This document shows, one piece after another, positions 41,609 to 64,000 of a DNA stretch of 64,000 bases (its first letter is position 1; each line of letters starts with the position of its first letter). Under the pieces are notes generated by a model. It saw nothing but the letters and a program-made list of their open reading frames with translations, searched no databases and was not told the DNA's origin. A program made the translations under genes and the position numbers. Source of the DNA: a virus; IMG/VR virus record IMGVR_UViG_3300025381_000007; one strand, 5' to 3'.

Positions 41609-42538
41609 TTAGTAAGTTTGGATACCAACGCAAGCGCCGGCTTGAGTAGATACTGTACCACTAGCATTACCCCAACCTGCAACCCAACGCACTTCTGTTC
41701 CATTTGCAAATACAAAAGAACCATTTACAGTTTGACGAATAACACGAGCTTTACGGCTTGTTAACTTTGTAACAACATAAGTGCTACCATTAGCATCTTT
41801 AGCAATAATGTTCATTTGACCTGCAACTAAAGAAGCTGCTGCCGCTGTAGAAGTTGTTAACTTGCAGATAGCACGACCTTGATCGTTTTCAACTAGATAA
41901 CGATGGCTACCTTCTTGTTTTAGAATTGCCGCAGTTGTAGCTGATCCTCCTGGAATAAATGCTGTACAAGCAATATTACCTGTGTCATCTTCTTGAGCTG
42001 TTAGGCTAGCGGTAATAACTGCACCAGAACCGTTATCGCTAAATGTTAAGTTAGAAGAATTATTCCAAGTACCGTTGTTGTTTACTGTACTAGTAATGAT
42101 GTTACCGTTAATAGCAGTAACATAACCGTTAATACCAGTTATTGCACCAGAAATTAACATACCAATGCTGATACCAGCTGTGGTTGATACAGTGAATGTG
42201 TTAGTAGCAGTTACACCAGAGTTAACTGTACTTGTGACTGTTGCTGGTTTAACAATAGTAATAGTAGCTGTACTGTAACCGGCGCCGACATTAGTAGCAT
42301 TAATGCCTGTAATGCCACCTGCTGGGCTACCTGTTGGACTATTAATAGTCAATGCAAATGTTGCTTGTACTCCATCAGCAAGGCCTTCAGTCGGTGCTGA
42401 AACAGATACAGTAGTACCTTGTGAATAGTGTGTACCGTTCGAAGTAAGTGCTACAGCAACACCTTTATATTTTACTGCTACGCTGGCATCGGCAGCGCCT
42501 TGTTTTACAAAATATCTCTTTTTAATTGGACGTCCCAT
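41609..42538 (-). CDS. Putative capsid-associated structural protein (309 aa)
   Basis: Immediately downstream of the major capsid gene, with its own late promoter; beta-rich, Thr-rich; basic MGRPIKKRYF N-terminus. Confidence 0.65.
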   Translation of the reverse strand: MGRPIKKRYFVKQGAADASVAVKYKGVAVALTSNGTHYSQGTTVSVSAPTEGLADGVQATFALTINSPTGSPAGGITGINATNVGAGYSTATITIVKPATVTSTVNSGVTATNTFTVSTTAGISIGMLISGAITGINGYVTAINGNIITSTVNNNGTWNNSSNLTFSDNGSGAVITASLTAQEDDTGNIACTAFIPGGSATTAAILKQEGSHRYLVENDQGRAICKLTTSTAAAASLVAGQMNIIAKDANGSTYVVTKLTSRKARVIRQTVNGSFVFANGTEVRWVAGWGNASGTVSTQAGACVGIQTY

Positions 42539-42566
42539 TTTGTTTCTCCTTTATGTTTATATGACA

Positions 42567-42620
42567 GTTCTATTGCCTACGCGGTTGGGGTTCCGCATAA
42601 ACTCTCCGTTAAGAGCGAAC
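42567..42620 (-). promoter_or_regulatory. Structured 5' leader between a TAAATA motif (42625-42630) and the 309-aa gene
   Basis: Minus strand GTTC [GCTCT-TAACGG-AGAGT][TTATGCGG-AACCCCAA-CCGCGTAG] GCAATA GAAC forms two hairpins closed by an outer helix. Confidence 0.5.
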
Positions 42621-51270: not shown

Positions 51271-52146
51271 GTGCCTGAAAACACCACATTTAATATTCCT
51301 GAGAATCCTTTGACCATGTTCATGCGTCAACCAAAAGTCTACATCAGACTACCTAGCAACGGAGAATATTGGCCACAAGGCAGTTTAGATCTACCCGATA
51401 ACAGGCAAATCGCAGTTTATTCCATGACTGCTAAAGATGAAATCTTATTGAACATCCCCGATGCCTTAATGAATGGACAAGCAGTAGTAGACGTCATTCA
51501 AAACTGTATTCCCGCAGTTAAAAATGCATGGGCAGCACCTAGTCTAGATATCGATGCCATGTTGATTGCAATACGTATTGCTACCTATGGAGAAATGATG
51601 AAAACTCCTATTAAGTTTAATGATGATTTGGAAATGGATTATCAAATAGATTTAAGAACGGTGTTAGATTCATTGATGAACAATGTTTCCTGGACTACAG
51701 CGGTGCCCATTAATGACTCAATGACTGTGTTTGTTAAACCCTTGACCTATAAACAAATAACAAAAAGTTCAATTCAAGTGTTTGAAACACAAAAAATTAT
51801 TCAGTTGGCCAACAATGATTCAGTCAGCGAGGACGATAAAGTAAAACTCTTTAAACAAAGTTTTAACAAACTCACTGATTCTACAGTAGACTCTATTGTT
51901 GATAGCATTTCTCATATAGACACAATTCAAGGTAGTGTTAGTAACCCTCAATTTATTAAAGAGTTTATTAATAATGCCGATAAAGATGTTTTCAATAAGA
52001 TTCAAAAACATCTAGAAGACATGAAAGACCAAAATTCTATCAAACCCATGAAGGTACCGGTAACTCCTGAAATGCAGGAACGCGGAGTCACGGGGGATAC
52101 CGTCGATATTCCTTTGGTATTTGATTCCTCGACTTTTTTCGCGTAA
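51271..52146 (+). CDS. Baseplate hub assembly/chaperone protein (T4 gp26-like)
   Basis: GTG start; VYSMTAKDEILL..PDALMNGQAV..VIQNCIP and DIDAMLIAIRIATYGE are gp26-like. Confidence 0.75.
   Translation: MPENTTFNIPENPLTMFMRQPKVYIRLPSNGEYWPQGSLDLPDNRQIAVYSMTAKDEILLNIPDALMNGQAVVDVIQNCIPAVKNAWAAPSLDIDAMLIAIRIATYGEMMKTPIKFNDDLEMDYQIDLRTVLDSLMNNVSWTTAVPINDSMTVFVKPLTYKQITKSSIQVFETQKIIQLANNDSVSEDDKVKLFKQSFNKLTDSTVDSIVDSISHIDTIQGSVSNPQFIKEFINNADKDVFNKIQKHLEDMKDQNSIKPMKVPVTPEMQERGVTGDTVDIPLVFDSSTFFA
52134..52140 (+). other. Candidate -1 ribosomal frameshift heptamer T-TTT-TTC
   Basis: ACT TTT TTC GCG TAA ends the gp26-like frame; the -1 frame is open from 52125 to 52370 and includes the 72-aa ORF. Confidence 0.6.
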
Positions 52147-52151
52147 GGCTT

Positions 52152-52370
52152 TTGTATCTTGATATTCCTGAAGTCGAAAAACTCCTTAACGACCTAGACG
52201 GAAATACAAAAGCCATTAAAGAAGAACTGTTAAGAATATGTTGGTTTATGAGGGGAGGGGTAGGATATAATGAAAGTTATATGCTTTCTCCCGAAGACAG
52301 AGAGATTATCACTAAGATTATCGAAAAGAACTTAGAAACAACTAAAGAAAGCGGATTACCTTTCTTCTAA
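52152..52370 (+). CDS. T4 gp51-like small protein, possibly expressed only as the C-terminus of a frameshift fusion
   Basis: LLRICWFMRGGVGYNESYMLSPEDREII..IIEKNLE resembles gp51/gpT-like chaperone C-termini; the only start is a TTG 3 nt from TAAGG. Confidence 0.65.
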   Translation: MYLDIPEVEKLLNDLDGNTKAIKEELLRICWFMRGGVGYNESYMLSPEDREIITKIIEKNLETTKESGLPFF

Positions 52371-52850
52371 TACTAGAAATGAGCTAAAGCTCATTTGTTA
52401 TTTCGCTCACGCTCATAACTGATTGTATTTCTTTTAATCACGACGTGTTAAATTTCATGTAGATTGTTTCAGTCAGACGGAACCGTTTTGCAAGGTTCCG
52501 TCTCTTTGTCTTCATGTGAGTCATCACAGCCGAGACATTGGAAGTAGGTTTTAATTATTCACCGTATGCTAATGGGCTCTGACCTTTCCCAACCTACGTC
52601 GACATCGCAGAATTATCTGCTACCTTAAACTTCGTTCCTAGTGTTTAAGTTTTTATAGCCGGTGATTTCGTATGCTAACATTCATACTATAACAATGCGT
52701 CGGGCGTATGGTTCTACCCTCTGACTCACTTCCGATTTTTCAGGATACTGGAATTCCTCCAGGGGAGTGCATCATTATGTTACGTGTCCGGTTATTCCCC
52801 GGTTTTTCCACAGCGGTATTACAAACTGGCCCGCTAACCTTAGGTGCTAG
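52371..52850 (-). ncRNA. Candidate large structured non-coding RNA (family unassigned)
   Basis: ORF-free ~470-nt gap with many hairpins, including a 10-bp stem (52475-52503), GTAGGTT/AACCTAC (52544-52597), CTTAAAC/GTTTAAG (52624-52649), GCAGA/TCTGC, CTGGA/TCCAG, CCGG/CCGG and AAATGAGC/GCTCATTT. Confidence 0.55.
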
Positions 52851-53121
52851 ATGATATATAACCTTTTGGAATCCAACAAACAAACATACTTTTTCCTTTT
52901 TTATTTTTGCAGGTATTACATACTACCTTACCTGCATGTGGTCCAGTCGGTTCGTTGATAATTTCCCAATTATGGGATTCGTGGATTCCTAGATGTTGCC
53001 TTAGTTTATTTCTTTGATCATGCCATGCTTTGTCAAATCCAGTTTTTGGATTAGTCCAGTATGTATCATTTAAAAATGCTGTATCACTTTTATTGGTTTT
53101 ACTGTAATCAAACTTTGTCAT
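52840..53121 (-). CDS. Hypothetical Zn-ribbon-like protein (93 aa)
   Basis: HxxxH...GPHAGKVVCNTC...FVCWI pattern of His/Cys residues. Confidence 0.65.
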   Translation of the reverse strand: MTKFDYSKTNKSDTAFLNDTYWTNPKTGFDKAWHDQRNKLRQHLGIHESHNWEIINEPTGPHAGKVVCNTCKNKKGKSMFVCWIPKGYISSST

Positions 53122-53125
53122 GATC

Positions 53126-53548
53126 TTATTTTTTTAATATATGTGAGCCATGTACACGGACCGAGATTTGTCCATTATAGTAGTCTGTAGATTCAAGTAC
53201 TTTGCGGTCGAATTGTTCACGGGCCTCAATGTAACTACATTCTGCTTTACTACGACAGTAGTATAATATCTCTCTGCTGAAATTTTCTTTGCCTAAATTA
53301 GCAACGTCTGCACTGAGTTCGTTGCTGGAGCCATAATATTCTTGCCAGTCGCTGTCTATTTTACTGCGAATTTTCTTTTTCTTTTTTGTGCCATTTTTTA
53401 GTTTAACAGTTTTATAAGTTGTTTTACTAAACTTTGCTAACTTCTTGCCTATATATTTTCTACCAGTGATTAAATTTGTAATCAAGTAGACAAACCCGAC
53501 ACAGTCATCGGGCAGGTCTTCCACGTTTTCTCCCTGGTACTTCCACAT
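53126..53548 (-). CDS. Stand-alone GIY-YIG nuclease-family protein (140 aa)
   Basis: GFVYLITNLITGRKYIGKK, WQEYYGSS, FSREIL, conserved Glu in YIEAREQ, and YYNGQI. Confidence 0.8.
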   Translation of the reverse strand: MWKYQGENVEDLPDDCVGFVYLITNLITGRKYIGKKLAKFSKTTYKTVKLKNGTKKKKKIRSKIDSDWQEYYGSSNELSADVANLGKENFSREILYYCRSKAECSYIEAREQFDRKVLESTDYYNGQISVRVHGSHILKK

Positions 53549-53793: not shown

Positions 53794-55566
53794 TCATTCG
53801 CCTGCGGAGTAACTGGTGTAACCATTTTCTTTTACCACTCGGAGCACGTTATTTACACGACCGACTAATTCATCCTTATGAGATATAAGGAAAATGTTCT
53901 TATTTCGTTCACGTGCCATTTTCTTCAATACTGCTAAAGCACTTTCAACCCCAGCACTATCCATACCTGCATCTACTAGTTCGTCAATAAACAATAAATT
54001 CAAACTTTGATACAATCCTTCCCAAACATCTCTAAAAGCAAAACTCATGGAAAGTATCAGTCGATTACGTTCGCCTCGACTTAAATTGTCAAAGTCTAAG
54101 TCTTGACCTAGCTGTGTAATCTCAACACTCAAATCGTTTTGAAATATCACACGGTGCGGCAATCCTAATGTATCAATATAGTTACCTAATCGTTTGTTCA
54201 AATAACTTAAATTTTGATCAATAATACGTTTACGAATAAAACTATCTTTGTTGGTTAACAGTTTTAAAAGATATTCTTGGTGATCTTTTAAACTAGTTAG
54301 TTCGTTAATCACATCCCATGTGATTTCCTGTAAAGCACTTTTCTTCAGTTCTTCAACTTGTTCAGCATAGGGATTGTTTTCATTTGCCCGTTCAGTTAGG
54401 CGTTTTTCTAAACTATCTAAGTTGTTTTTATGACCTAATGCTTCTGCTTCTGTGTCGTAAAACGTAATAGGACGCTTAGGTTGATCACCGATAGATTCCA
54501 GTTCATTTAAAACTGGAATAAGTTCGTTGCCAATCTTAACACCATATTCTAAAGATTCGTTGTAATGTTTCTGTGCTAATGCGTTCATTTCTTCATGTTT
54601 GTGATCATGAAGATCCTGTTCGCAAGCAGGGCATGTTTTATTTTGTAACTTTTCTAATTCTCGTTGATACTTGTCAGAAGCCTTTTCTGCTTGAATCAGT
54701 GCAGATTCTAATGTGGCCTTTTGTTTTTGTAGACTTGTAATCTTAGAGTTGTTATCTTCCCATACTTTCAACTGAGCATGTAAATCTAATTCTTGGTTGA
54801 TATTAACAGTTGCTAGAGTCTCGATACTTTTAATCAACGAGTTTAAGTCTTGTTCTTTTTTATTTTCCCAAGCATTGCTACGAGTGATCAAACTGTCAAT
54901 GCTTTTTTGAATATTTTCGTTAGCACGTTTAGTTGCTTCGATTTTAGCAGTCTCCTCAACAATTGCATCTTTAGTTTCTTTAACTGATGCCTTTAGTGAC
55001 TCTGCTTTTTCACTAAGCAACGTAATGCCGAGCAGTTGTTCGATAACTTCTCGTTGATCCGCAGCCCTCATTGATAAAAAAGGTTCTGTATAAGTGTTCA
55101 ATGCCAAAATGTGTTTAAACATGGTGTGTGACATTTCTAACATTTGTTCGATGGCTTTTTGTGTTTCTCGACTATCTCCCTGAGCATCGTCATCTGTTTC
55201 GTCAGTTTTTAACTGATCGTTATTAACAAACAACCTAAGCACATTTGGTTTACGCCCACGCTCAATACGATATGTATTTCCGCCTTTATCAAACTCTACA
55301 GTGACTAACATATTTTTACCGTTAATCTTATTGATCAAGTTTTCTTTCTTGATGTTTGTAAGAGCTTGACCATAGAGTGCGTAACTCAAAGCATTGATAA
55401 TGGTAGTTTTACCTGTACCGTTACGTGAGCCTGTATCATCTCCTCCTAAGTCAAGGTTAGCACCTAGCACTAGAGTTAAATGTCCTTGTTCGAAATCTAC
55501 GGCTTGGGTATTTTGACCCACACTCATGAAGTTCTTTACAGTTAGGTTTTTAATGTGAAAGCTCAT
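53794..55566 (-). CDS. gp46: Recombination endonuclease ATPase subunit (T4 gp46/Rad50/SbcC-like)
   Basis: Walker A NGTGKTT, zinc-hook CPAC, signature LSRGE, Walker B LFIDE and ISH switch. Confidence 0.96.
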   Translation of the reverse strand: MSFHIKNLTVKNFMSVGQNTQAVDFEQGHLTLVLGANLDLGGDDTGSRNGTGKTTIINALSYALYGQALTNIKKENLINKINGKNMLVTVEFDKGGNTYRIERGRKPNVLRLFVNNDQLKTDETDDDAQGDSRETQKAIEQMLEMSHTMFKHILALNTYTEPFLSMRAADQREVIEQLLGITLLSEKAESLKASVKETKDAIVEETAKIEATKRANENIQKSIDSLITRSNAWENKKEQDLNSLIKSIETLATVNINQELDLHAQLKVWEDNNSKITSLQKQKATLESALIQAEKASDKYQRELEKLQNKTCPACEQDLHDHKHEEMNALAQKHYNESLEYGVKIGNELIPVLNELESIGDQPKRPITFYDTEAEALGHKNNLDSLEKRLTERANENNPYAEQVEELKKSALQEITWDVINELTSLKDHQEYLLKLLTNKDSFIRKRIIDQNLSYLNKRLGNYIDTLGLPHRVIFQNDLSVEITQLGQDLDFDNLSRGERNRLILSMSFAFRDVWEGLYQSLNLLFIDELVDAGMDSAGVESALAVLKKMARERNKNIFLISHKDELVGRVNNVLRVVKENGYTSYSAGE

Positions 55567-56576
55567 AGTTCGTTATAAATCTTCAATAAAATGCTTTTAT
55601 CCATTTGACCGTTTTCTAAATTAATCAATCCATCTGTAACAATCTGGTCAACACTTTCAAACATAGTTTCAGTGTTTTCATCAATCATTCCGTTAGAGTT
55701 ACTTTTATCCTGAATCAAACTAAGTTCTCGGATATCGTAAAGGTTACTAAACTCATCTTTAATATAGTTTGCTTCTTCAAAACTAATAGGGATATCTAAG
55801 TTTACTTTTAAATGCATCTTAGATTTCATGATTGTGTCTTTCTTATCAATCATCTCACTAAGTTTGAGTACTCGATACTTAGGACAGTTATCCCAGTTAA
55901 TAAATTTAGGCTCGCCGCCCCATTCCATGATCATCATGCCACGTTCATCGTCCCAGTTATCTGCAAAGTTATGGGGAAAGGCATTACCAATGTACCAAAC
56001 CTTGCCTTTATTCTGTCGTTTATGGAAGTGTCCCGAAAAAATATAATCAGGACCGTCAAAGTCGTCAACTTTTAATTCACCGTGGTCGGGCATTTGTACC
56101 ATAGCATTCATATAAAACAACGGCAGTTCAAAGTGTCCAAACACATATCGGCTTTTCAACTTTTTCATTTCCTTCCACTCATCCCCGACAAGCCACGGGA
56201 CTAGGGTGACATCATCAAGAGTTGTTATACCCTCTACGACGGTAACTCCTGGAATATGGCGACCAAAGGCCGATGAATGAATATCACGCTTGTCTTTGTA
56301 AAACAAATCGTGGTTGCCGGGAAACCAAAAAAACTGCTCAAAGGCAGCACCTAGTTTTTCTAAACAGCGTAGACTACTATCTAATGTGAATAGGTTTAGG
56401 CTGTTTCGGTTGTGACTCCAATCGCCAAGGAAAATGCAAGTTTCACACCCTTGCTCCTTGGCGGTTGAAATAAACCAATCTACGAATTCTTCGCAATCTT
56501 GTAAATGTGTTGATGAATTGGACTTTAGACCATAGTGGATGTCGGTGAAACATGCCACTTTTTTAAATAGACCCAT
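55563..56576 (-). CDS. gp47: Recombination endonuclease nuclease subunit (T4 gp47/Mre11/SbcD-like)
   Basis: Metallophosphoesterase motifs DIHYG, GDW, GNHD, GHFE and GHFH; ATGA-coupled to gp46. Confidence 0.95.
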   Translation of the reverse strand: MGLFKKVACFTDIHYGLKSNSSTHLQDCEEFVDWFISTAKEQGCETCIFLGDWSHNRNSLNLFTLDSSLRCLEKLGAAFEQFFWFPGNHDLFYKDKRDIHSSAFGRHIPGVTVVEGITTLDDVTLVPWLVGDEWKEMKKLKSRYVFGHFELPLFYMNAMVQMPDHGELKVDDFDGPDYIFSGHFHKRQNKGKVWYIGNAFPHNFADNWDDERGMMIMEWGGEPKFINWDNCPKYRVLKLSEMIDKKDTIMKSKMHLKVNLDIPISFEEANYIKDEFSNLYDIRELSLIQDKSNSNGMIDENTETMFESVDQIVTDGLINLENGQMDKSILLKIYNEL

Positions 56577-62147: not shown

Positions 62148-62153
62148 TAAAAT

Positions 62154-64000
62154 ATGGCATTTGATGAACGAGCAAGAGTCCCTCCCAAAAATTCAGGACC
62201 ATTCATTGCGGTTATTACTAATCATAACGACCCTTTAAAAATGGGTCGATTAGAAGTTGCCCTGATAGACGGTATGCAAAACTCCACTACTGTCAAAGGA
62301 GAAACCTATGTTGCCAAATATTTAAGTCCATTTAGTGGCGCAACTTCTGTTGACTATGAAGGCTCCGATGCTTCCAAGTTCAGCGATGTACAAAAGAGTT
62401 ATGGCTTTTGGATGATACCTCCTGACATCGGTAGTAGAGTTATGGTTATTTTTGCACAGCAAGATCCTAACCAATGTTATTGGATCGGTAGCGTACAAGA
62501 TACATATCAAAACTACATGATTCCTGGTATTGCGGCTTCGTCATCGACTTATATGACATCTGAGCAGCAGCAAAAATATAGTCAGGCTACCTATTTGCCA
62601 GTGGGCGAATACAATAAAAAGACTGAGTTATTAAAAGATCCTAGAATCGATCAAAAACCTAAACCAGTTCATCCATTCGCTGATAGACTTTTACAACAGG
62701 GTTTATTAATGGATCCTGTTCGCGGTCCTACATCTAGTAGTGCTCGCAGAGAAACACCTAGTCAGGTATACGGAATCAGTACACCTGGCCCATTAGATCC
62801 CAAAGGACCTGTTAGAGCCATTAACGGTGATAAGAATGTTGTTGCCCCAGTTAGTCGATTAGGTGGTTCTACATTTGTCATGGACGATGGTGATGTCAAC
62901 GGACAAAATGAACTAGTTAGAATCCGTACAAGAACAGGACATCAAATCTTGTTACACAATACCAATGATTTAATTTATATCGGTAACTCTACAGGAACAA
63001 CATGGCTTGAAATGACCAGTCATGGTAAGATAGATATATTTGCTCAGGATAGCATTAGTATTCATACTGAAGGTGATTTTAACTTTAGAGCAGATAGAGA
63101 TTTTAATTTAGAAGCAGGCCGTAACTTTAAAATCACAACCATGGGATCAAATGCTGGAGATGTTAGTATAACTTCTGGCGGCAACTTAAATGTTACAGGA
63201 ACTAAGTTCTTAATGTCGTCGCCGGGGGATTTTAATCTTTCAGCAGGCGGCAATATGAATTTACATACCGGAGGAACTTATGGATTAAGTTCTAAATCTG
63301 ATATAAACTTATTGTCTGGTAAAAATTCTAATCTAACCGCAACATCGCAGTTTAATATAAAATCTGGTTTTAAAAATGTAGTAGCAATCACTGCTGGTAC
63401 AGATATATCTTTAAATGCTAAAGATTCTGTTACTGTGGGAAATACTACAGATTCCCCTCCAGTGTTGTACACTGACAACTCCAGAACTCCTACTGTTGCC
63501 GATGCTGCTACTGCGCCTACAGTTACAAAACCTATATCGCCGACATTATTCAGTGTGCCGGTCCGAGATGTTTCCAAAGGTTGGCAAAATGGAAACCTAT
63601 ATAATGGCGGCACCTTATTGACAACTATGCAACGTGTCCCTATGCACGAGCCATGGGATCAACATGAAGATGTTAATCGTCTACAGTTTTCGTTGGCATA
63701 TACTGATGCTGGAATAGGTCCCAGTGTTAGAGCTTCTAATGGATCAGTCATTCCTGCAGGACCTAGTGCAAATACCCCTTATCCTGCACAAGCTGGTCCA
63801 GGCATAGATAATGGCGTAGTTCGCGGACAAAAATTCCCATGGAGCACTGATCAACCTTTCTTGGAAGCAGTTAAGAATGTAGCTGAAGGATTTAATTTTG
63901 ACCCATTAGATTTATTAGCAGCAATGTGGAATGAAACTGGCGGAACATATGATCCTGCTATTAAGAATCCATTAGGATCAGCTACAGGATTGATACAATT
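62154..64000 (+). CDS. Baseplate central spike (gp5/VgrG-like) with a lytic transglycosylase-like domain; truncated by the window end
   Basis: Not in the ORF track. Manual translation gives an OB-fold DPLKMGRLEV...SYGFWMIPPDIGSRVMV.F...YWIG, then RIRTRTGHQILL and beta-helix repeats; the window ends in the same frame at LLAAMWNETGGTYDPAIKNPLGSATGLIQ. I did not check every intervening codon. Confidence 0.8.
   Translation, partial: MAFDERARVPPKNSGPFIAVITNHNDPLKMGRLEVALIDGMQNSTTVKGETYVAKYLSPFSGATSVDYEGSDASKFSDVQKSYGFWMIPPDIGSRVMVIFAQQDPNQCYWIGSVQDTYQNYMIPGIAASSSTYMTSEQQQKYSQATYLPVGEYNKKTELLKDPRIDQKPKPVHPFADRLLQQGLLMDPVRGPTSSSARRETPSQVYGISTPGPLDPKGPVRAINGDKNVVAPVSRLGGSTFVMDDGDVNGQNELVRIRTRTGHQILLHNTNDLIYIGNSTGTTWLEMTSHGKIDIFAQDSISIHTEGDFNFRADRDFNLEAGRNFKITTMGSNAGDVSITSGGNLNVTGTKFLMSSPGDFNLSAGGNMNLHTGGTYGLSSKSDINLLSGKNSNLTATSQFNIKSGFKNVVAITAGTDISLNAKDSVTVGNTTDSPPVLYTDNSRTPTVADAATAPTVTKPISPTLFSVPVRDVSKGWQNGNLYNGGTLLTTMQRVPMHEPWDQHEDVNRLQFSLAYTDAGIGPSVRASNGSVIPAGPSANTPYPAQAGPGIDNGVVRGQKFPWSTDQPFLEAVKNVAEGFNFDPLDLLAAMWNETGGTYDPAIKNPLGSATGLIQ

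Follow-up and report, generated by a model that had tools for sequence, protein, structure and literature searches.

What is encoded by the ~480-nt gap that separates two convergent genes in a genome fragment of an uncultured T4-like phage (IMG/VR virus record IMGVR_UViG_3300025381_000007)? The stretch of DNA analyzed here, hereafter the window, is 64,000 nt long, and the DNA runs that contain it are freshwater metagenomes. Within the window, 52371-52839 is not covered by a single open reading frame (ORF) of ≥60 aa, and the gap is flanked by a 93-aa ORF on the (−) strand (52840-53121) and a 72-aa ORF on the (+) strand (52152-52370). We found that 52371-52850 on the (−) strand is the gene of a non-coding RNA of ~475 nt, which belongs to a large, uncatalogued family of uncultured freshwater phages. 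A preliminary description of this locus had proposed a novel structured non-coding RNA of ~480 nt on the minus strand that closes a gp47-gp46-GIY-YIG gene row. The proposal was borne out by indels of a non-coding kind, strong covariation, a conserved hairpin at the end and the lack of an Rfam match, and the placement was upheld as well. The gap is indeed ORF-free but is the second largest in the window rather than, as had been stated, the largest, since 62511-63061 is longer (ORFs ≥60 aa).

Among 80 IMG/VR sister loci fetched via the neighboring gp26-like baseplate gene, only three contained homologues of the full gap (98%, 84%, and 84%), and these three together with the window sequence (n = 4) already displayed compensatory changes in several hairpins. 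An exact 18-mer of the hairpin at 52670-52687 had more than 116 matches in IMG/VR, and a 20-mer had 21. An nhmmer run on the loci gathered with these exact matches revealed at least 134 homologous loci (80-506 bits; core ~52857..52451), a lower bound for IMG/VR, with 90 distinct sequences that make up the covariation alignment used throughout. In comparison, blastn of the region against GenBank phages gave no match, and a scan of the GTDB species genomes with the 18-mer gave two, both due to chance, with the likeness confined to the 18-mer. Rfam cmscan returned no relevant family, either for the window at the gathering threshold or for 52100-53100 at E ≤ 10, so that the novelty of the RNA is retained. 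Specifically, 52100-53100 yielded no match to group I or group II introns or to known ribozymes at E ≤ 10, and the window contained no tRNA or tmRNA genes. The RNA sits between convergent genes and interrupts no gene.

Next, we considered coding potential. Relative to the window sequence, 762 of the 844 indels in the RNA core were not multiples of 3, and the longest ORF of each member (median, 53 codons) was mostly antisense, with no common position among the longest. Such indels speak against a decayed protein gene. In the window sequence, a 25-codon ORF starts at the AUG of word 1 (the first of the two heptamers described below); it was rejected, since in many members this triplet is AUA and indels disrupt the frame.

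To describe the fold, we built a helix model from RNAalifold, a mutual-information scan, and a search for stacked covarying column pairs. RNAalifold proposed 57 pairs for the 90 sequences, 35 of them with compensatory double changes; the top pairs of the mutual-information scan were Watson-Crick with three to five pair types, and the search for stacked column pairs added helices that RNAalifold cannot draw. The final model has 17 helices and 83 pairs, which were 97.6% canonical compared with 86% for column shuffles (which take no account of relatedness) and 33-37% for slid partners (which do). Compensatory changes were found in 50 of the 83 pairs (shuffle mean, 33; maximum, 40) and in 795 cells (shuffle mean, 218; maximum, 255). 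The fold of the RNA thus comprises at least 17 helices and includes two long-range closures as well as two pseudoknots. The features are as follows:

52371..52850 (−): whole structured RNA, ~475 nt, from 134 nhmmer loci (profile covers 52857..52369), with no conserved ORF; its limits are predicted, the 5′ end as the first pseudoknot strand and the 3′ end as the terminal hairpin
52845..52850 (−): pseudoknot 1, 5′ strand CUAGCA, within the last codons of the 93-aa ORF; pairs with 52675-52680
52812..52835 (−): H1, hairpin GCGG/CCGC with a 15-nt loop; 4/5 pairs compensatory (GC to CG, AU)
52808..52811 with 52459-52462 (−): H2, long-range closing helix, GUGG with CUAC; 98.9% canonical, one-sided changes only
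52778..52769 with 52698..52689 (−): H4, long-range helix that encloses a four-hairpin domain (52689..52778); 5/9 pairs compensatory
52768..52765/52727..52724 (−): H4b, inside the H4 domain
Inside the H4 domain (−): hairpins H5 and H6; H5 has GC/CG/UA/AU at one pair (MIp 1.65)
52719..52702 (−): optional hairpin in the H4 domain, missing from several members
52675..52680 (−): pseudoknot 1, 3′ strand UGUUAG, in the loop of hairpin GUAUG/CAUAC (52670-52687); pairs with 52845-52850
52624..52649 (−): H8, hairpin CUUAAAC/GUUUAAG; 7/7 pairs compensatory
52581..52600 (−): pseudoknot 2, covarying; GAC (52600..52598) with GUC (52583..52581) in the loop of hairpin UGGG/CCCA (52591..52573)
52544..52597 (−): H10, helix GUAGG/CCUAC, which encloses H11; 100% canonical, 3/5 pairs compensatory
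52527..52516 (−): small hairpin directly before word 1
52511..52517 (−): word 1, ACAUGAA, after CUC and directly 3′ of the hairpin 52527..52516; identical to word 2 in 84/90 sequences
52477..52501 (−): H12, hairpin ACGGAACC / GGUUCCGU, the most conserved stem, between the two words; 98.8% canonical, with 66 G-U and 0 A-C cells
52454..52460 (−): word 2, ACAUGAA, after UCU, its first two bases belonging to H2; covaries in parallel with word 1
52397..52419 (−): tail hairpin GUUAU/AUAAC capped by GAGC-GUGA-GCGAA (a GNRA tetraloop on tandem G-A); shared by the two RNA types compared below
52377..52396: terminal hairpin AAAUGAGC-UUUA-GCUCAUUU, which ends the RNA; compensatory changes at the end of both RNA types

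Pseudoknot 1 was 100% canonical across the 90 sequences, with CUAACA/UGUUAG replaced by CCAACA/UGUUGG in nine of them. In pseudoknot 2, all three pairs were compensatory (99 cells; 98.9% canonical), the variants being GAC/GUC, GUG/CAC, GAU/AUC, and AAU/AUU. H2 closes nearly the entire RNA; because it shows one-sided changes only, its pairing is consistent with the alignment yet unproven. Across the model, G-U pairs far outnumbered A-C pairs (555 versus 28), and therefore the minus strand is the one that folds, under selection on RNA-type pairing. This asymmetry and the covariation agree with the strand favored in the preliminary description. Folding energy, which had been put forward there as a check, gave z-scores of −2.4 for the (−) strand and −4.9 for the (+) strand. 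It is a weak and misleading guide here and, because it favored the wrong strand, was set aside for covariation.

Of 11 stems listed for this locus on the basis of the window sequence, nine were kept and covary among the 90 homologues, namely TAGCGG/CCGCTG, CCGG/CCGG, CTGGA/TCCAG, GTATG/CATAC, CTTAAAC/GTTTAAG, GCAGA/TCTGC, GTAGG/CCTAC, GGG/CCC, and the 10-bp AGACGGAACC stem. The GTGA/TCAC hairpin and the terminal hairpin of that description are plausible. Two stems fell away: ACC/GGT over the upstream stop codon showed no compensation, and TATAG/CTATA clashes with the covarying long-range helix 52778..52772/52695..52689. Both long-range helices and both pseudoknots were absent from that list.

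The most unusual result of the covariation analysis concerns the two heptamer words, which lie 57 nt apart in the window RNA. Both copies were identical in 84 of the 90 sequences, with 10 matched variants (ACAUGAA, ACAUAAU, ACAUAAA, GCAUAAU, ACAGAAA, GCAUGAA, ACAUCAA, ACGAAAU, ACGUGAA, and AUCAGGA), and in the mutual-information scan their columns covaried in parallel (G-G to A-A, A-A to U-U) rather than as complements. Most members have AUG or AUA as the central triplet, followed by an invariant A. No Watson-Crick covarying column was found in the 90-sequence alignment for the variable positions of the words. Pairing of the words with each other was rejected because most variants are not palindromic. 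The change in step could reflect an outside partner that is bound twice, a dimeric protein, or a non-canonical contact.

At the 3′ end, the inner C-G pair of the tail hairpin is replaced by U-A in some members, as read from the alignment by eye. On the (+) strand, the terminal hairpin scores as an intrinsic terminator, that of the convergent plus-strand genes, while its U run on the (−) strand is short (UUUC). It is also kept at the 3′ end of the RNA elsewhere; in other loci, a TATAAATA-type late promoter and then the next gene come after it.

We then asked what occupies this position in the sister loci that lack the window-type RNA. In all 24 of those tested, the ~140 nt directly past the stop codon of the GIY-YIG gene matched Rfam family RF01718, the Polynucleobacter-1 motif (79-123 bits). 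The sister RNA lies at L002:5935-6377 (−) and in 23 further sister loci, always immediately 3′ of the GIY-YIG gene. There, the conserved stretch, which is poor in ORFs, continues for ~430 nt to the same kind of terminal hairpin and contains, past position 141, more covarying helices, among them a hairpin-loop pseudoknot (UUAGUGU/ACACUAA). The twin-word design recurs in the sister RNA, with six matched variants of RRAURAU. A profile of the sister RNA matched only 52474..52378 of the window (nhmmer E = 4.9e-6), and the reverse search agreed (E = 8e-5); the two RNAs therefore share a 3′ domain plus several motifs and differ in their 5′ two thirds. The shared domain comprises the twin heptamers after CUC and UCU, the sequence GAC-N-AAUCU, the GNRA tail hairpin, and the terminal hairpin.

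The window RNA is a modular relative of the Polynucleobacter-1-containing RNA. It resembles the RF01718-containing RNAs in its genomic slot, 3′ of the orthologous GIY-YIG gene in the sister loci (24/24), and in its last ~100 nt, its twin in-step words, a loop pseudoknot of the UGUUAG/CUAACA kind, the GNRA tail, and the terminal hairpin. In contrast, no sequence similarity to the sister RNA was detectable over its first ~370 nt, the partner strand of the pseudoknot is at the 5′ end in the window RNA but 3′ of the hairpin in the sister RNA, and the RF01718 covariance model (threshold, 37 bits) gave no hit in 52100-53100, including at E ≤ 10. The catalogued RF01718 is 141 nt long and was not known from phages. 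In the supplementary entry for the Polynucleobacter-1 motif, the motif is placed "downstream of genes of family GOS11034", an uncharacterized family, and is described as absent from any purified phage as of that publication (Weinberg et al. 2010, PMC2864571 supplement). In terms of that entry, the window RNA likewise follows a GOS11034 / PSSM2_218-like gene; this is the GIY-YIG gene, from which a single 93-aa ORF separates it. The motif of 2010 appears to be the 5′ third of a ~430-nt phage RNA of the same class.

Since the GIY-YIG gene is the usual upstream neighbor of both RNAs, we examined how closely gene and RNA are tied. Within 2.5 kb and on the same strand, a GIY-YIG gene was found at 90 of the 134 loci, 80 times upstream and 10 times just downstream, the latter in a different genomic setting. 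A further 18 loci are cut off at the 5′ side, and ~26 offer enough space on both sides yet lack a GIY-YIG gene within 2.5 kb; in two of these ~26, the upstream gene encodes a podophage Gp77-like adaptor. Where no GIY-YIG gene lies upstream, a motif resembling a T4-type late promoter (TAAATA) precedes the RNA by 51-75 nt in at least 11 of 32 loci, compared with 0 of 55 nuclease-adjacent loci, and the leaders of the loci that lack an upstream GIY-YIG gene mostly contain two to five GGC[A/U] motifs. RGGCA repeats (two to five, spaced ~10-14 nt) together with TAAATA 50-110 nt upstream were observed in L081, L087, L100, L113, L115, L162, L176, and others. The window copy of the RNA has neither TAAATA nor an RGGCA leader.

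Conversely, the protein family occurs without the RNA. PHROG 447 (cyanophage "T4-like GC 213") is present in 371 cultured phage records, mostly from cyanophages, and in the two cultured phages inspected, Melnitz and S-SSM7, there was no room for, or match to, the RNA behind the nuclease gene. Many GenBank records label PHROG 447 members "NAD synthetase", which looks like an annotation error. A longer basic loop of the GIY-YIG protein does not track the RNA either, as L210 has the RNA and a short loop. Given the nuclease-free loci, the promoter-like motif, the nuclease-bearing phages without the RNA, and the loop that does not track it, the RNA behaves as an independent module. The frequent adjacency could stem from shared ancestry, from homing next to a conserved RNA gene, or from a real partnership. 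The GIY-YIG protein found no sequence match among solved structures.

The 93-aa ORF, whose last codons overlap the 5′ strand of pseudoknot 1, is present at 38 of the 134 loci; at each of them it separates nuclease and RNA, and it never accompanies an RF01718-type RNA. It belongs to no Pfam or PHROG family, and its AlphaFold model (pLDDT, 76) had no PDB match at E ≤ 0.001. It had been taken for a Zn-ribbon protein; the family has the pattern H-x2-H ... H-x5-C-x2-C, which is not a four-Cys zinc ribbon. The suggestion of a ribonucleoprotein with the GIY-YIG and Zn-ribbon proteins found no support, given that the RNA occurs without the nuclease, that two phages have the nuclease without the RNA, and that the 93-aa ORF accompanies only 38 of 134 loci.

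How might the RNA act? In this window, it would be co-transcribed with the upstream gp47-gp46-GIY-YIG-93aa genes, the transcript presumably ending at the conserved terminal hairpin, and would then act as a free, stably folded molecule rather than as a control element of the upstream genes. The fold may serve as a scaffold that displays two identical, largely single-stranded heptamers (core AU-R-A-W), each 3′ of a helix. The two words might each engage one copy of an outside partner, or both contact a single partner at two places; candidates for this partner are a nucleic acid recognized through base pairing and a dimeric protein. Overall, we consider a free phage non-coding RNA, a scaffold with twin words that is a modular relative of the sister RNA, to be the best explanation and give it slightly more than an even chance. 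The presentation of the twin words to an outside partner is the most likely mode of action but is proposed tentatively.

Several observations weigh against this picture. The nuclease gene is next door, on the same strand and on either side, in two thirds of the loci (90/134), and therefore a functional tie to it has to be kept in view. The shuffle controls behind the fold ignore relatedness (the slid controls do not). Evidence for transcription consists of contigs that derive from relatives (85-92% alike) in four metatranscriptome runs of four studies, which cover 52626-52885 and parts of the neighboring genes, without ends, strand, or joints, and is weak because DNA carry-over is possible. 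As for an outside nucleic acid, the reverse complement of the word showed no positional cluster within 3 kb of the RNA and was not enriched within 400 nt relative to control words. The word itself was not enriched in the 64-kb window and is therefore not a promoter-type motif. Word variety is low, mainly G/A at position 5 and A/U at position 7, so that a conserved partner or a structural motif fits as well as a guide, and bases 1 and 2 of word 2 form pairs in H2.

Among the alternatives, the one with the best prospects, although unlikely, is that gene and RNA are neighbors by mobility: a Seg-type homing endonuclease would have settled beside a conserved RNA gene that serves as its cleavage and landing site, and the RNA would work alone. 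T4-like free-standing Seg-type GIY-YIG genes are likewise inserted between conserved genes and beside structured-RNA genes, as illustrated by T4 segB, which sits in the tRNA gene cluster. The nuclease gene can precede or follow the RNA, in unrelated genomic settings, conservation of the RNA core at the DNA level is very high (the 18-mer with more than 116 exact matches), and both PHROG and Pfam label the protein family as homing endonuclease / SegE. However, the GIY-YIG protein is only 140 aa long, lacks the C-terminal DNA-binding domain of Seg proteins, and is encoded at all 80 sister loci with 75-91% identity, better kept than gp26, and therefore looks like the product of a fixed core gene, not a selfish one. 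In another reading, the RNA would act as ribonucleoprotein partner or guide of the GIY-YIG protein, which has a catalytic domain with a basic loop and no DNA-binding domain of its own, the twin heptamers reading half-sites or strands of a DNA target. The same-strand adjacency on either side (80 loci upstream, 10 downstream), the two different RNAs in the same slot behind the same gene, and the words that change in step also point this way, and OMEGA guide RNAs (IscB/HEARO, TnpB) similarly adjoin a small nuclease gene on either side. We nevertheless regard a guide as improbable: ~26 loci with room on both sides have the RNA and no nuclease gene within 2.5 kb, members of PHROG 447 in Melnitz and S-SSM7 have no such RNA behind them, the basic loop does not track the RNA (L210), and the words are 7 nt long and little varied, with no target within 3 kb and none enriched within 400 nt. 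In addition, T4 endonuclease II offers an example of a stand-alone GIY-YIG enzyme with a similar size. Unlike OMEGA systems, the nuclease here is GIY-YIG rather than RuvC/HNH, the RNA occurs without it and two cultured phages bear it without the RNA, and there is neither a long variable guide segment nor a matching target nearby. The chance is just as small that the heptamers base-pair with two target copies or strands and thereby steer the GIY-YIG protein, or that they capture two copies of one cellular RNA, for example at a tRNA anticodon loop.

Slightly less probable still is a self-assembling ornate RNA, an RNA-only homo-oligomer in which the twin words would form symmetric contacts. We know of no counterpart of the twin in-step words in GOLLD or ROOL. 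The window RNA resembles GOLLD (RF01998) and ROOL (RF03087) in being large (400-800 nt), multi-domain, pseudoknotted, and, as is often the case for them, phage-carried, and it has a GNRA-capped tail hairpin. ROOL and GOLLD are reported to make RNA-only cages (bioRxiv 10.1101/2024.12.08.627333). Neither RF01998 nor RF03087 was matched by cmscan in the window at the gathering threshold or in 52100-53100 at E ≤ 10, the window holds no tRNA genes, near which GOLLD and ROOL are usually found, and identical direct words cannot pair mutually unless palindromic, which most variants are not. We see little prospect for a cis-acting 3′ untranslated region that stabilizes or ends the operon transcript, or for a ribozyme whose two identical words would be sites of cleavage or ligation, with release of the 57-nt piece between them. 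The RNA does directly follow the operon in this window, with a hairpin at its end, its 5′ pseudoknot strand shares sequence with the final codons of the 93-aa ORF, and the twin words flank the best-conserved hairpin; yet it also occurs away from the operon, in several loci behind a late-promoter-like motif, its 17 helices and two pseudoknots far exceed the needs of a terminator or stabilizer, no joint across the words was seen in the RNA-library contigs (where cover is thin), and no Rfam ribozyme or intron matched at E ≤ 10. Finally, an element acting as DNA, such as the replication or packaging origin offered earlier as an alternative, or a decayed protein gene is highly improbable. Dense inverted repeats, a direct repeat, and the better folding energy of the plus strand would fit such an element, but the strand-specific G-U pairs speak for RNA-type selection on one strand and make an origin unlikely; the pseudoknots covary, the indels do not come in multiples of 3, and the window has no further repeats of the word.

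RNAs of large size that combine many covarying helices with pseudoknots are rare, and in the past they have proved to be ribozymes or to form the core of RNA-protein machines. The RNA described here is common in freshwater phage metagenomes (>130 contigs) and absent from Rfam and from the cultured phages searched. Its in-step twin words offer an experimental handle, as they can be mutated in step or out of step. The frequent pairing with a GIY-YIG nuclease that lacks further domains makes an RNA-assisted nuclease worth testing; if true, an RNA-steered nuclease would be the first RNA-directed GIY-YIG system.

The genes around the RNA are as follows:

55563-56576 (−): gp47-like gene
53794-55566 (−): gp46-like gene
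Between the gp46-like and GIY-YIG genes in list order: 106-aa ORF
53126-53548 (−): GIY-YIG protein, 140 aa, catalytic domain only, usual upstream neighbor of the RNA; Pfam PF19835 (SegE_GIY-YIG; E = 6.6e-34), PHROG 447
52840-53121 (−): 93-aa ORF, accessory neighbor outside the RNA proper; H-x2-H ... H-x5-C-x2-C invariant
52152-52370 (+): 72-aa ORF, converges on the gap
51271-52146 (+): gp26-like baseplate gene, converges on the gap

The order gp26 / 72-aa ORF / variable stretch / GIY-YIG / gp46 / gp47 is kept in the 80 sister loci, and the gp46 protein is ~50% identical to gp46 of cultured jumbo phages. The 72-aa ORF directly follows gp26 in all 80 sister loci (44-79% identity), 5-20 nt past the gp26 stop codon. 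Elsewhere in the window, 62148-63277 comprises 1.1 kb without an ORF of ≥70 aa, more than the gap studied here, and follows a plus-strand gene of 1116 aa; for this region, Rfam at E ≤ 1 and blastn against GenBank phages were both empty. A further structured RNA was recognized at 42536-42617 (−), which is the freshwater-2 RNA of Rfam (RF02980; 62.3 bits, gathering score 49.9).

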